NCBI GenBank assembly: GCA_001917665.1
Contig: MNEL01000027.1
Span: 18,866-82,865, forward strand
From: Gemmatimonadetes bacterium 13_1_40CM_69_22
Lineage (GTDB): Bacteria > Gemmatimonadota > Gemmatimonadetes > Gemmatimonadales > GWC2-71-9
Direction of reading: 5' to 3'
Length of the DNA: 64,000 bases
Below are positions 2,898 to 8,625 of the stretch, piece after piece (position 1 is the stretch's first letter; every line of letters starts with the position of its first letter). The translations under genes were made by a program, and so were the position numbers. The notes beneath the pieces were generated by a model. The model was given only the letters and a program-made list of their open reading frames with translations, searched no databases and had not been told where the DNA came from.

Positions 2898-3853
2898 CCG
2901 CGCCGGACCTCCCCGCGCAGCTGTTCCACCTCCCGCTGCAGCCCCCGCACCTCCTCCCGCATCCCCGCCACCATCTCTCCCACGAAGCCGAACCCGAACA
3001 AGGCGAGACCGGCGATCACGAGCAGCAGCACCAGGTAGAGGAACGCACGATTGCCCTGGTGCAGCGCGTACCGCTCGATCAGCGCGTACACGCCGACCGC
3101 GACGCCGAGCAGCATGAGCACCGCACCGGTGACCCCGAAGAACAGCATCGGCTTCCGGCCGAAACGCAGCTGGAACCACACCGAGATCAGATCGAGTACA
3201 CCTACCGGAATCCGCCCGATCCCGAACTTCGACTTCCCGGACTGCCGGGGATAGAGCGGCACGGGCCGTTCGGCGAGCCGGAACCCCTCGGCGGCCGCGA
3301 GCACGACCATGTAGCGGTGCCAGTCGGGGCGGCTCGGCAGGTAGTCCATGACTTCGCGCCGATACGCCTTCACGGAGTTCAGGTCCGTCACCCGGATCCC
3401 GAACAGCCAGCGGCACAGCGTGTTGTACACCCACGAGACGAAGCGCTTCTCGTAATGTCCCTGCTTGGTGCCGGTCACAAAGTCGGCCTCGTCCGCGATG
3501 ATCGGCTGCACCAGCGTCGGAATGTCCGCCGGTCGATACTGCAGGTCCGCGGGATAGAACACGAGGATGCGCCCGCGGGCGGCATCGGTGCCGGACTTGA
3601 GCGCGTCGGCGATGCCCCGGCCGCTGCGGTGCGTGACGACCCGGACGAAGGGATGCTTGGCGGACAGCTCGTGCAGCACGTCGGCGGTGCCGTCGCGGCT
3701 GCCGTCGTCGATCACGACGATCTCGCTGGCGTAGGGGAGCGGCAGCAGCGCCTCGCGGGCCTGGCGCACAAACTCGGCAAGGTTTCCGGCTTCATCCTTC
3801 GCCGGGACCAGCACGCTCACCTCGGGCGCGACGGCCGGCGTGGCGAGGCTCAC
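2894..3853 (-). CDS. Family-2 glycosyltransferase, polyprenyl-phosphate sugar transferase type (ArnC/DPM1-like) with C-terminal TM helices
   Basis: VSVLVPAKDEAGNL...VVIDDGSRDGT...ADLQY motifs with two hydrophobic C-terminal helices. The GTG start overlaps the rpoN stop (GTGA). Confidence 0.85.
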   Translation of the reverse strand: MSLATPAVAPEVSVLVPAKDEAGNLAEFVRQAREALLPLPYASEIVVIDDGSRDGTADVLHELSAKHPFVRVVTHRSGRGIADALKSGTDAARGRILVFYPADLQYRPADIPTLVQPIIADEADFVTGTKQGHYEKRFVSWVYNTLCRWLFGIRVTDLNSVKAYRREVMDYLPSRPDWHRYMVVLAAAEGFRLAERPVPLYPRQSGKSKFGIGRIPVGVLDLISVWFQLRFGRKPMLFFGVTGAVLMLLGVAVGVYALIERYALHQGNRAFLYLVLLLVIAGLALFGFGFVGEMVAGMREEVRGLQREVEQLRGEVRRG

Positions 3854-5310
3854 AGCCGCTTGCGCATGCGTGCCGGAAGGATACCCAGCTGATCGCGGTA
3901 CTTGGCGACGGTGCGGCGCGCGATCTTCACGCCGCGCTGCGCGAACATCTCGACGATCTGCTGGTCGGTGAGCGGATTCTTGGGGTCCTCGTCGTCCACC
4001 ATCTTCTGGATCTGCGCCTTGATCGATCGGGCGCTGGCGTCCTCGCCGGTGGTGGTCGAAAGACCGCTCGAGAAGAAGAACTTGAGCGGTAGCAGGCCGC
4101 GTGGCGTCTGGACGTACTTCTCGTTGGTCACGCGGCTGACGGTGCTCTCGTGCATGTTGATGACGTCGGCGACCTCGCGCAGCGTGAGCGGCTTCAAGTA
4201 CTCGACGCCCTTTTCGAAGAACTCGCGCTGCCGGTCGACGATGAAGTTCATCACCTTGAGCATCGTCTGGCGGCGCTGCTCGATCGCCTGGATCATCCAG
4301 TGGGCGCTGTTGAGCCGTTGGTTGATGAAGTCCTTGTTCTCCCCCTGGAATTTCTTCTTGTCGCGCGCGATCTCCTGGTAGGTCTTGGAGATGCGGAGCC
4401 GGGGCAGCCCGCCGTCGTTCAGGAACACATGGTACTTGCCGTCGATCTTCTCCACGACCAGGTCGGGGATGATGTACGCGTCGCTCGCGGCGGAGTACTG
4501 CAGCCCGGGCTTCGGGTCGAGCCGCGCCAGCTCGTCCGCCACCCGCTGCACCTCCGCCGCATCGAGGCCGAACCGCTTGCCGAGGTCACTCCAGCGGTGC
4601 GCCTTGAGATCATCGAACGCCTCCTTGACGAGGCGGTAGGCGAGCGTGCCGGTTTCGTTGCGGGCCTCGAGCTGGAGCAGCAGACACTCGCGCAGGTCGC
4701 GGGCCCCGACGCCGGGGGGATCGAGCTTCTGGATGATGCGCAGCATCTCCTCGGCCTCGGCGAGGGCGAAGAGCTGCGGCTTCTCGTCCCCCTCGGCTTC
4801 GACCGCGTACTCCTCGAGCAGCTGGTTGGCGCCGCGGACGATCTCCTCGAGCGAAGCACCGAGATAGCCGTCCTCGGCGATGTTGCCGATGAACTCTTCG
4901 GCGAGCAGCTGTTGTCGAGGGGTCAGCTCGAGCAGCCGCATCTGGTCGCGCAGGTGGTGCGAGAGATCCTTGGTCTCGACCGGCACGGGCTCGATGTACT
5001 CCCGGGCTTCGCTCAGGTCGCGCGGCGGCGTGCCCTGGTCGCTGCCGTCGTCCAGCAGGATGTCCTCCCAGTTCGGCTCGTCGTTGTTCTCGGTTTCCTT
5101 CTTCTCCTCGACGCCGTCCTGCGTGAGGGGCAGCTCGGTGTCTTCTTCAGGCTCGATCAGCTCGAGGAACGGGTTGCCGAGCAGCTCCTGCTTCAGGTGC
5201 TGCTGCAGGTCCAGGAGCGGCATGTACAGCAGATCCATCGCCTGGTACAGGCGTGGATTGATGCGCAGGTCCTGGCGCAGCGCGGCGTGCTGATGCAGGC
5301 CGGTCTTCAT
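3850..5310 (-). CDS. rpoN: RNA polymerase sigma-54 factor
   Basis: 486 aa. N-terminal Gln/Leu-rich region I ([18 protein letters not shown]), acidic region II, and a C-terminal RpoN box (ARRTVAKYR). It sits immediately downstream of lptB, as in the classical kds-lpt-rpoN synteny. Confidence 0.95.
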
Positions 5311-6563
5311 ACCGGGACCGCGAGCCGCGCCCGCAGGCGCGCGGTGAGGGTGGGGCCGAGGTAGAGGTTGGCCACCCGGTCGTCGAACACGAGCTCGCGC
5401 ACGGTGCCCGAGACCTGGACCTTGCCCTCGAACATGATGTAGGCGCGATCCACGATATCCAGCGTTTGCTCCACGTTGTGGTCCGTGATCAGCACGCCGA
5501 TGCCGCGATGGCGGAGCCCGGCCACGATCGTCTGGATATCGTGTACAGCGATCGGATCCACCCCGGCGAACGGCTCGTCCAACAGCATGAATTTAGGCTG
5601 GGTGACGAGCGCACGCGTGATCTCGAGCCGGCGGCGCTCGCCGCCCGACAGCTGATAGCCCTTTTGGCGCCGCAGGTGCCGGATGGCGAGCTCGTCGAGC
5701 AGGTGATCGAGGCGCTGCCCCAGCTCTGCGTCGTCGAGCGGCAAGGTCTCGAGGATCGCCCGGACGTTGTCCTCCACGGTGAGCTTGCGGAACACCGACG
5801 GCTCCTGGGCGAGGTAGCCGATCCCCGCCCGGGCCCGCTGGTACATCGGCTCGGCGGTGACGTCGCGCCCGTCGAGCGCGATGCGGCCGCGGTCGGGCCG
5901 GATCAGCCCCGTGATCATGTAGAACGTGGTGGTCTTCCCCGCTCCGTTGGGGCCGAGCAGGCCGACGATCTCGCCCTGCTCGAGCCGCACGCTCACGTCG
6001 TTCACCACACGGCGGCCCTTATAGCTCTTCGCCAGCCCGGTCGCCTCGAGCAGGCTCCCGCCGGCGACGCGCGGGTAGGCGCCACTGGGCGACTCCGCCC
6101 GGGTGAGCGCGCGCTCGGCTGCCTCGAGCAGCTGGTCGGCCGCGCCGGGCGCCATCTGGAGCTCCTCCCACGCCTCCCGCGTGAACGCGACCAGGGCGTC
6201 GTCCGCGAGCAGGCCGTTCGGGTACCGCACCACCTTCGCCACGACGAGCCGCGGCAGCACCGAGGTGCGGAGACTGGTGCGGAACTCCTCGACCGACAGA
6301 CCGCCCAGCTCCGGGAGGTTCGCGCTGCGCGCGTGAATCCGCAGCTTCAGGAACTCCTCCCGATAGGCGATCGCCAGCTCGCCGAACGTGGTGCGTCCCT
6401 GCCCATCCGCCACGCGGGCGAGCGCCGCCGCGGCGAGCGGCAGTGAGGAATCCCGCTGCGCCAGCAGGTCGGGGATCCGCTGGGAGATCACGGGGGGCAC
6501 CGGGAACCCTGGGGGCGCGGGCGGCACGGGGGGCACGGGGGGCACTGCGGGGGGCGTGGTCAT
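5307..6563 (-). CDS. lptB: LPS export ABC transporter ATP-binding protein LptB carrying a ~175-aa N-terminal extension
   Basis: The C-terminal 240 aa align by eye with E. coli LptB ([53 protein letters not shown]). The in-frame upstream region is stop-free back to ATG 6563, which forms ATGA with the stop of the upstream gene. The nearest alternative in-frame start is ATG 6155. Confidence 0.85.
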
Positions 6564-7975
6564 CGATTCGATGGCTTCTTGGCGGCGCTGTCCGCCGGCG
6601 GCGGCTTGGGCGGCGCGGGCTCGAGGTGTACCCCGTCGGCGCGGCCGCTCACGACGATGCGGTCGACCTTGCCCGCCTTGAGGGCGATATCGATCATCTG
6701 GCCGCGCGAGTAGTCGATGGCGGGGCCGAGCGCTGCGGCGGAGTCCTTCGCGCTGCTGTAGATGTGGCTGAGCGAGCGGGCGGCGCCACGCGCCACGATC
6801 TGGTGCAGCTCGCTCTTCGTCTTGCCACCCGTGTCCGCCAACTGCGTCCAGTGGGCGGTGAGCGAGTCGCCCGCGATCCAGTCCACCGCCGCGGCCGCGG
6901 AAGCGTCCTTCTTCGACGTCGACAAGGCGTGGCGGAAGGCGCGAGCCTCGGTCAGCACCTCGTCCGGCGTGTCGAGCGCGAGCGAGTCGGCCTCGATCGT
7001 ATTGAGAGTCGACACCGCTTTCGCGCGGGTCGAGTCGCGTCCCCCCCTGTCCGCCCCGCCCCCTTTGTCCGCCTTGTCCCCCTTGTCCCCCTTGTCCCCC
7101 TTCCCTCCCCCGCCGCCCCCGCTCCAGGCGAACGCGTGCTGCAGCTTGCGGCGGTCCAGGGCGAGGTGAATCGTGTCGGCCGTGAGGCGCCAGTCGGTGC
7201 CGGTGGCGACGCCCTGCCCCAGCGCTTTGACGAGGCGGATCTCGCGGTCGCGGAGACCGAGCTCGATGCGGGTTCCCGTCAGTGCATACGCGCGCGCCCC
7301 CTTTCCTTCCACGCGGGGTCGACCCACCAGGACGGCGAACCCCGCGCCCTGATCGAGCTGCATCGAATCGCCGCGGGCGGCGAAGTCGCTCCGGTCGATC
7401 GTCACCTTCCCGCCGCCCCACATCCGGTCGTTCCCCTTGAAACGCACGCGGTCCCCTACGATGATGTACGGCTCGCCCGAGTCGGCGTTCGACCGGTAGT
7501 CGATCGTGGGGCGTCCGGAGGCGTACATCTCGAGGGTATCGCGGACGCCTTTCAGGGCCCGGTAGTAGGTGAGGTTCGGGCCGCGCAGCACCGATCCGGT
7601 GATGCGATTCACCGCGACCACGTTCTTGTGCGCCTCGAGCCGCTCCTGGTGCAGGAAATACGAGGCATTCACGGCGTCCAGGGTGAGGGTCGTGTCGCGG
7701 ATGTGCACGAGGTGCCGCTGCCCGATCATGTCGAACCGCCCGATTCCGGCGAACCACGCCACGCTGTCGGCGGACAAGGTGCTCCCCGTCCCCCGGCAAT
7801 GCGCCAAGACGCCACCGCCCGCGAACACGTTGGTCTCGCCCTTACGCACCTCGACCTGCTGCGCCCGTCCTCCAACCGAGTCGATATCCACGACGCAAGG
7901 ACGTCCCGCCGTGGTGTCCCCCGGCGAAGGGGCGGGTCGCTGGACCAACGCTAGGAGCAGGAGCGGGACGATCAT
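6560..7975 (-). CDS. Large periplasmic OstA/LptA-like protein (multiple OstA-like modules)
   Basis: 471 aa with a hydrophobic N-terminus ([11 protein letters not shown]). Repeated beta-strand-rich OstA-like modules are separated by a Gly/Lys/Asp linker. It occupies the position between lptC-like and lptB. Confidence 0.7.
7067..7102. repeat. 9-bp in-frame tandem repeat (3 perfect copies plus 1 degenerate) encoding (KGD)n in the LptA-like protein
   Basis: On the plus strand, GTCCCCCTT occurs 3 times at 7076-7102, preceded by GTCCGCCTT. It encodes ...[22 protein letters not shown]... on the minus strand. Confidence 0.85.
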
Positions 7976-8625
7976 TGGTTCGGCAGCGTGAACTTGCCGC
8001 CCGTCCCCTTCGGGCGGACCGCCGTCACGACCTTGAAGTCAGGATCCGAGGTGAAGCCCTCGCCCTCGATGTGGCGATTCGGCTCGTCGAACACGAACGG
8101 CTTGTCGGAGCTCACCTGGTTCTTCAACTGGCTGTAGCGCAGCACTTCCGTGCGCAGCGTGGCGCCGTCGGTGCGCACCACGACCACGTTGCCGCGTGCC
8201 TCCATGTCGCCGGGCCGCCAATGGTGGGTTCCCTCGCGCGCCGTGAGCGTCGACGTCTCGGCGCCGCGGGGGTCGTAGAACGTGATGTGCACGGTGCGCA
8301 GCTCGGCGGTCTGCAGGGGCGAGTAGAAGTACGCGGTGTCGGCCCGCACGTGGGCCCGCTGGATCCCCCCTGCGGTCACGTAGTGCGACATGTTGACCAG
8401 CACCTGATCAGCCGTGTCGGCCGCGGTGATGGTCGCGGTGGGTTTAATGCCTGCGTCGCAAGCCCCTACCGCAACCCCGCCCAAGAAGGCGTAGCACGAA
8501 AAGGCGTAGCACAAAGACGTCGCGCGAAGACGTGACGTCGTCGCGTGACGTCTTTGCGTGACGTCTCTGCGTGACACCTCTGCGTGACGTCTCTGCGTGA
8601 CGCCTCTGCGTGACGTCGTTTGCAT
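7972..8625 (-). CDS. lptC: LptC-like LPS export protein (start uncertain)
   Basis: The C-terminal ~150 aa are beta-rich and OstA/LptC-like (...TAYFYSPLQTAELRTVHITFYDP...GNVVVVRTDGATLRTEVLRYS...). The stop overlaps the downstream start (ATGA). ATG 8625 directly abuts the kdsD stop (TAAATG), but the first ~35 codons are the translated 13-bp repeat array. An alternative TTG start at 8514 precedes the hydrophobic segment LCYAFSCYAFLGGVAVGAC. Confidence 0.6.
   Translation of the reverse strand: MQTTSRRGVTQRRHAEVSRRDVTQRRHATTSRLRATSLCYAFSCYAFLGGVAVGACDAGIKPTATITAADTADQVLVNMSHYVTAGGIQRAHVRADTAYFYSPLQTAELRTVHITFYDPRGAETSTLTAREGTHHWRPGDMEARGNVVVVRTDGATLRTEVLRYSQLKNQVSSDKPFVFDEPNRHIEGEGFTSDPDFKVVTAVRPKGTGGKFTLPNQ
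8531..8621. repeat. Tandem array: 7 copies of a 13-bp unit, consensus CGTGACGTCTCTG
   Basis: CGTGAC recurs at exactly 13-nt spacing at 8531, 8544, 8557, 8570, 8583, 8596 and 8609. Each unit carries a GACGTC / TGACGTC core (two units are mutated). Confidence 0.95.

Follow-up and report, generated by a model that had tools for sequence, protein, structure and literature searches.

The LptB2FG complex is essential, serves as a current antibiotic target and ranks among the best-studied lipid-extracting ATP-binding cassette (ABC) machines, and the mechanistic work on its ATPase, LptB, has all been carried out with a bare protein of ~240 residues. Canonical LptB, as known from Escherichia coli, Pseudomonas, and Vibrio, among others, is ~241 amino acids (aa) long and has been solved both alone and within LptB2FG(C). 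Extra cytoplasmic domains fused to the nucleotide-binding domain (NBD) are familiar from other ABC transporters: the C-terminal regulatory domains of MalK, MetN, and ModC, found on importers, have beta-rich folds (TOBE-like or C2), and the C-terminal carbohydrate-binding domain of Wzt, a beta-sandwich on the NBD of an O-antigen ABC exporter, binds a polysaccharide cap. The additional domains of ABC transporters are often regulatory (review, PMC3971661), and accretion of domains on NBDs is unsurprising in itself. Here, we analyze the gene for the lipopolysaccharide (LPS) export ATPase, lptB, in a 64,000-nucleotide (nt) stretch of Gemmatimonadetes bacterium 13_1_40CM_69_22 (contig MNEL01000027.1), hereafter the window. 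The predicted product is a long LptB with an extra N-terminal domain, encoded here and in no fewer than 70 genomes of related soil Gemmatimonadales. No description of an N-terminal domain on LptB was found in the searched literature; the novelty lies in this undescribed, clade-wide accessory domain, accessory domains on ABC ATPases as such being known.

The complete lptB open reading frame (ORF) occupies positions 5307–6563 on the minus strand, running from the ATG at 6563–6561 to the TGA at 5309–5307 and encoding 418 aa plus the stop, as given by the ORF list and the sequence and as matched by full-length homologs. Its C-terminal part (residues 171–418; positions 5310–6053, minus strand) aligns end to end with canonical LptB. 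Solved LptB structures in the PDB cover residues 171–404 (E = 2e-82 to 1e-75), TIGR04406 (LPS export ABC transporter ATP-binding protein) covers residues 172–405 with 352.3 bits against an equivalog cut-off of 240, and Pfam ABC_tran spans residues 187–333. The set of ABC motifs is complete, comprising the A-loop residue Y181, which aligns with A-loop Tyr13 of solved LptB, Walker A (GPNGAGKT, 204–211), the Q-loop (Q253), the signature (LSGGERRR, 305–312), Walker B (LLDEP, 327–331), and the H-switch (H362), and all of these are invariant among the 70 orthologs aligned. The genomic context fits as well, with the gene placed after lptC (Pfam and TIGR04409) and before rpoN, as for canonical lptB, and the same order retained in distant variants. 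By every criterion that could be tested on the sequence, except domain architecture, residues 171–418 are a bona fide LptB. The exception concerns length: LptB family members are single-domain proteins of ~240 residues, whereas the window protein has 418, of which residues 1–170 lie outside every LptB model and structure, and the matched solved chains (~241–282 residues) begin at the first ATPase beta-strand, apart from leading segments of at most ~33 residues. An initial annotation, made from the sequence alone, had described an in-frame N-terminal extension of ~175 aa. The extension is real, but its length is ~170 aa, since solved LptB aligns from residue 171 and TIGR04406 from residue 172; it includes a predicted folded domain of ~130 residues. 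At the other end of the protein, the C-terminal tail (residues 401–414; window positions 5310–5360), a few residues past the aligned end of the solved LptB chains and predicted to lie within a long terminal helix, is almost completely invariant among the 70 genomes.

The extension is translated as part of LptB. Its GC content at codon positions 1/2/3 is 0.79/0.54/0.93, compared with 0.73/0.41/0.92 in the core and 0.69/0.34/0.92 in rpoN. Searched on its own, it matches 101 metagenomic proteins at local identities of 43%–100%, many of which run on into an ABC domain. The ratio of nonsynonymous to synonymous substitution rates (dN/dS; Nei-Gojobori), computed against the 25 closest of 71 orthologs, is 0.03–0.5 in the extension, typically ~0.3, and ~0.11 in the core, and in a nucleotide alignment built without translation the internal gaps are solely of 6, 9, 12, 18, 72, and 75 nt, all multiples of 3. 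The extension is thus kept at the amino acid level among orthologs and the 400 nt upstream of ATG 6155 evolve as coding DNA, in agreement with the protein-like composition noted in the initial annotation. Two plus-strand antisense ORFs (5466–6446 and 6443–7954) were considered as real genes and rejected; third-position GC, homologs, and dN/dS favor the minus-strand frame.

Translation would begin at an ATG or GTG overlapping the stop of the upstream gene, which occupies the position of lptA. In the window, as had been proposed, the lptB start ATG (6563–6561) forms an ATGA overlap (6560–6563, minus strand) with the TGA (6562–6560) of a 471-aa gene. An NTGA start/stop overlap is present at the lptB start in 59 of 69 orthologous loci, and in 54 of these 59 that TGA terminates an open frame of 200 or more codons upstream. 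A downstream internal start giving rise to canonical LptB was examined and rejected. The previously reported lack of a start codon near the canonical N-terminus holds: between ATG 6155 and GTG 6008 the frame offers CTG codons only, with no ATG, GTG, or TTG. ATG 6155 itself precedes the core by 34 codons (40 had first been given), and GTG 6008 falls within the ATPase core, where initiation would remove the first beta-strand and the A-loop. No start-like codon near the core is conserved in the orthologs (the best column has one in 30/70 sequences, and the window has GTC there), and none of the orthologs requires initiation at the position equivalent to 6155 or further downstream. The long gene models of Gemmatimonadales lptB are correct, and trimming them to canonical length is unwarranted.

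To delimit the distribution of the long form, one genome per GTDB species was scanned, which yielded at least 91 genomes with the domain; the best 80 of the 91 were retrieved, and all are metagenome-assembled genomes. These 80 are labeled Gemmatimonadales, Gemmatimonadaceae, Gemmatimonadetes, or Gemmatimonadota, except for one “uncultured bacterium” and two short “Eisenbacteria” contigs. The AYREEF motif of the extension was found in 77 loci; in 75 of them it shares its frame with Walker A (GPNGAGKT), from which it is separated by a constant 138–144 residues, and the remaining 2 run off their contigs. A whole-protein search listed 120 matches of 351–418 aa, all but one of them at least 388 aa long; the listed full-length matches cover 66%–100% of the long LptB, nearly all of them 92%–100%, and carry the PGAP and IMG label LPS export ABC transporter ATP-binding protein. 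Pairwise distances in the extension and in the core are correlated (r = 0.85), with the extension diverging 2.7 times faster, which indicates that extension and core are inherited together and fits a single old fusion passed on vertically.

Occurrence of the domain outside Gemmatimonadota was considered and rejected. The two contigs binned as “Candidatus Eisenbacteria” that carry a long lptB, L051 (VBOS01000019.1, 2.9 kb) and L066 (DATGVE010000001.1, 2.8 kb), look like misbinned Gemmatimonadales fragments, and the ORF geometry of L051 is that of a Gemmatimonadetes locus (L045) from the same soil study; misbinning is probably the explanation rather than presence in another phylum. The two closest relatives retrieved include L002 (QHTT01000076.1), whose extension is 93% identical. 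The lptB frame of L002 stops after 290 codons, inside the ATPase core, and this shortened frame is either an assembly error or a pseudogene.

A few loci raise the question of whether the domain is a separate small protein encoded upstream of lptB, the fusion in the window being an artefact of annotation, assembly, or read-through. In L082, L083, and L084, domain-only ORFs of 160–179 aa are called directly upstream of lptB genes of 228–256 aa. However, in all three loci the domain ORF and lptB are in different frames and either overlap or abut, with the switch falling within the linker, and L083 and L084 (as well as L081) contain several fragmented neighboring genes, a sign of indel errors made in assembly. 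In the window and in the 75 GTDB loci, by contrast, the frame is uninterrupted and the spacing constant, and a conserved start codon at the core is lacking, the window having none in the interval from 6155 to 6008. Sequence comparison thus largely refutes the two-protein arrangement, which we consider highly implausible. A reading of the domain-only ORFs (P0365, P0374, and P0123; 160–179 aa) as stand-alone domain genes was rejected; all three lie just upstream of lptB in another frame and are probably products of indel errors. Altogether, lptB is broken by frame changes in L081–L084 (ENA ERZ25039498, ERZ25039530, and ERZ25039507; GCA_016705425.1), within the linker in L082–L084 and past the Walker A region in L081. 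Gene calls broken in this way make up separate 50% clusters and are over-represented among the matches of the representative-protein search.

The product can be divided into four parts: a Pro/Val-rich N-terminal tract (residues 1–25; 6489–6563, minus strand), a conserved domain of ~130 residues (28–157; 6093–6482, minus strand), a variable, flexible linker of ~13 residues (158–170; 6054–6092, minus strand), and the LptB NBD. The PPVPPVPP tract, noted from the outset as the beginning of the extension, is present and is encoded by a 9-nt tandem repeat, CCCCCCGTG (6.3 copies, 6489–6545; Tandem Repeats Finder), but it lies outside the conserved module. It is missing from most orthologs, which start 35–48 residues before the AYREEF motif compared with 63 in the window, and comparable tracts occur only in the closest relatives (L001, L002, L009, and L014), with gaps between relatives in multiples of 3. 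The predicted local distance difference test (pLDDT) score of the tract is below 50 in a model of the full-length protein and 55–67 in a domain-only model, and it is a lineage-specific repeat expansion that is probably disordered. The linker is poorly conserved, with pLDDT below 50 at residues 158–162 in the full-length model.

The domain between them is delimited by three alignments (A1, A2, and A3, the last being the 70-genome alignment), by AlphaFold2 (AF2) modeling, and by Foldseek comparison. Positions invariant across the 70 genomes include L41, L43, A47, L48, R50, G56, A64, A66, Y67, R68, F71, L72, L89, S90, P104, R105, L106, and A149. Across divergent subfamilies, which share 23%–36% identity, S40, R68, L98, the P104-R105-L106 triplet, and W132 are invariant, and D38, A52, R95, and an acidic residue at position 92 are nearly so. 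The order of genes around lptB is kept in these subfamilies too (kdsA-kdsC-kdsD-lptC-unknown-lptB-rpoN-GT2, the last a family 2 glycosyltransferase).

These conservation patterns bear on the possibility that the extension is a functionless appendage, a tolerated remnant of a gene fusion. Its 2.7-fold faster evolution relative to the core and the origin of the Pro/Val tract by repeat expansion would agree with such a remnant. Against it stand the purifying selection on the extension (dN/dS ~0.3), the 17 extension columns that are invariant across 70 species-level genomes, the retention of the extension in divergent subfamilies with P104-R105-L106 and W132 unchanged, and the confidently predicted fold described below, and we regard a functionless remnant as very improbable.

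Comparison of the extension with Pfam, NCBIfam, PADLOC, and the PDB, extended to all individual members of two alignments and to a profile-based PDB search, yielded nothing above threshold. Among the Pfam families of DNA-binding winged helix-turn-helix (wHTH) domains, the only matches were isolated and sub-threshold (DUF7344, E = 0.11, and PaaX, E = 0.024, one member each). By these searches, the N-terminal module belongs to no described sequence family and represents a new domain family. The AF2 model built from the domain alignment has a mean pLDDT of 81.8, reaching 90 or more across most of the core, and contains helices at residues 40–51, 60–78, 91–108, 129–136, and 141–157 and strands at 57–59, 112–113, and 124–127. 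The resulting order is alpha1-beta1-alpha2-alpha3-beta2-beta3 (core, ~38–128) followed by two helices (129–157). A full-length model, run on an alignment of database proteins (A4), reproduces the secondary structure of the domain and has a low-confidence linker and a predicted template modeling (pTM) score of 0.57. The best PDB matches found by Foldseek are all winged-helix domains (the Sir3 C-terminal domain, Orc1/Cdc6, MukE/F, MarR, and FOXN1), albeit weak ones (E = 0.02–0.2, template modeling scores of 0.35–0.55, 10%–20% identity). We consider it probable, on the strength of these models, that the domain has a winged-helix core. Sir3, Orc1/Cdc6, and MukE/MukF provide the closest likeness, that of protein-contact winged helices, being the best structural matches and sharing the alpha1-beta1-alpha2-alpha3-beta2-beta3 topology; the LptB domain differs from them in its long alpha2, a 12-residue alpha2-alpha3 loop, two extra C-terminal helices, and the lack of any sequence relationship.

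The family was further surveyed by a profile search of 1.84 billion representative proteins, which returned 178 clusters at E ≤ 0.001. This number is an undercount, since the clusters of ordinary LptB absorb the full-length proteins. Almost every match is an LptB N-terminus, and several are in frameshifted or truncated gene calls. One exception, P0220, is a 1339-aa hypothetical protein on a 5.8-kb contig of JGI metagenome 3300045391, with the domain at residues 353–468, where it is 53%–54% identical to one LptB-extension subfamily, and a TIR_2 domain at 866–988; the protein has no PADLOC match. Since this TIR protein carries the domain, the domain has been reused outside LptB at least once. 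A second protein, P0165 (273 aa, on a 2-kb contig), contains the domain without an ABC domain and, like the architecture of P0220, was seen once. The copy in the TIR protein marks the domain as an autonomous module; its ~130 residues are predicted to fold independently and are conserved across Gemmatimonadales.

A winged-helix topology raises the possibility that the domain binds DNA and that LptB doubles as a membrane-tethered transcription regulator, for instance of the kds-lpt-rpoN operon. The structural matches include MarR-family repressors, FOXN1, and the DNA-binding domains of Orc1/Cdc6, the third helix bears two arginines (R95 and R105) that are invariant or nearly so, and lptB adjoins rpoN. 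Several features speak against it. The net charge of the domain averages −3 across the 70 orthologs and ranges from −6 to 0, with the third helix and wing close to neutral, and the connection between helices 2 and 3 is a variable, low-confidence loop of 12 residues instead of the tight turn of DNA-binding winged helices, so that neither that turn nor a basic DNA-contacting surface, the hallmarks of DNA-binding wHTH domains, is present. The acidic charge makes DNA binding unlikely, and together with the neutral third helix and wing and the long variable loop it argues against a classical DNA-binding wHTH. In addition, no sequence match to any DNA-binding family was obtained and the protein is part of an inner-membrane complex. 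A role in DNA binding therefore appears improbable.

A second alternative is that the N-terminal domains are structural, binding each other or the NBD so as to hold the NBDs close or to stabilize the assembly, without any signal input. LptB acts as a dimer, and the best PDB match of the domain, the Sir3 C-terminal winged helix, is a homodimerization module; the winged helices of MukE/MukF, also among the matches, belong to complexes that clamp ABC-type SMC (structural maintenance of chromosomes) heads. Yet the full-length monomer model shows no confident packing against the NBD (pTM 0.57, linker pLDDT below 50), canonical LptB dimers need no such clamp, and the domain is also found in an unrelated TIR protein, all of which makes a purely scaffolding function unlikely, though less so than DNA binding.

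We favor a reading, with a probability of roughly 55%, in which the domain is an accessory cytoplasmic module on LptB2FG that serves in regulation or docking, by analogy with the extra domains of other ABC transporters; the regulatory or partner-binding role suggested in the initial annotation is thus plausible. The gene of a bona fide LptB has gained a module at its 5' end, and this module is translated together with the ATPase. The LptB2FG complex would then bear two copies of the domain in the cytoplasm, near the nucleotide sites, each one beta-strand away from the A-loop residue Y181, which stacks on ATP. The binding partner of each domain might be a protein of the cytoplasm, the second copy of the domain, or an anionic ligand, and D38, S40, R68, R95, R105, and W132, which are invariant or nearly so, possibly form the site. 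Binding would tune NBD closure and ATPase activity and, through these, the rate of LPS extraction, in a manner resembling that of the C-terminal regulatory domains on MalK or MetN.

The resemblance to MalK, MetN, and ModC consists in an extra cytoplasmic domain fused to an ABC transporter NBD; the LptB domain differs in being N-terminal, a predicted alpha/beta winged helix, and attached to an LPS extractor, and there is no homology. Wzt, whose ABC exporter also serves the LPS pathway, likewise bears an accessory domain on the NBD and illustrates that NBD appendages can carry substrate- or state-sensing functions when envelope glycolipids are exported, but its domain is C-terminal, a beta-sandwich, and unrelated to the LptB domain in sequence and fold. 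Three points weigh against a regulatory or docking role: the full-length AF2 model (pTM 0.57) does not confidently place the domain against the NBD, the conserved gene neighborhood offers no obvious partner, and known NBD regulatory domains are C-terminal with other folds, so that the analogy is functional only. That a whole order of abundant soil bacteria keeps an extra folded domain on LptB would imply a layer of LPS-export control or coupling that is missing from proteobacterial models. The domain is kept throughout an order, belongs to a transporter of great interest to both mechanism and medicine, and is easily tested.

The lptB gene lies within an operon-like series of overlapping minus-strand genes consisting of a kdsD-like gene, lptC, the 471-aa gene, lptB, rpoN, and a GT2 gene. 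As noted initially, lptB is directly upstream of rpoN (sigma-54; positions 3850–5310, minus strand; Pfam Sigma54_AID, Sigma54_CBD, and Sigma54_DBD): the lptB stop TGA (5309–5307) overlaps the rpoN start ATG (5310–5308) in an ATGA overlap (5307–5310, minus strand). The same overlap is found in every orthologous locus examined (69/69), and lptB and sigma-54 therefore appear to be translationally coupled throughout the clade. This coupling makes sigma-54 the leading candidate partner in a more far-reaching scenario, in which LptB would act as a signal-transducing ATPase whose domains sense the transport state or a cytoplasmic metabolite of the LPS pathway and capture or release a transcription factor, or bind DNA directly. 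If it held, LPS export to the outer membrane would be physically wired to transcription in Gemmatimonadales; we rate it as a long shot.

The outer members of the series are a kdsD-like SIS/CBS isomerase gene (9606–8626, minus strand) and the GT2 glycosyltransferase gene (3853–2894, minus strand). The 471-aa gene in the lptA position (6560–7975, minus strand) has no Pfam, NCBIfam, or PDB sequence match despite its place between lptC and lptB. The gene at this position encodes 262–572 aa in relatives and has no Pfam match in L081–L084 either. Its product, which has a hydrophobic segment at the N-terminus, may be a periplasmic Lpt component, either novel or highly divergent. Within the gene, a 9-nt/27-nt tandem repeat at 7042–7119 (minus strand) encodes a Gly/Asp/Lys low-complexity stretch and is the second in-frame repeat expansion in the operon, resembling the Pro/Val tract of lptB.

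The lptC gene (7972–8625, minus strand; Pfam LptC and TIGR04409) is called with a doubtful 5' end. The first ~90 nt of the called ORF are taken up by a tandem repeat with a 13-nt unit (ACGTCACGCAGAG-like; 6.7 copies with 86% matches) at 8531–8617 (minus strand), past the kdsD stop (8626) and ahead of the body of lptC. As the period of this repeat is not divisible by 3, the N-terminus as called (MQTTSRRGVTQRRHAEVSRRDVTQRRH...) is probably not real, and the true lptC start is likely further downstream, near a lipobox-like ...LGGVAVGAC.

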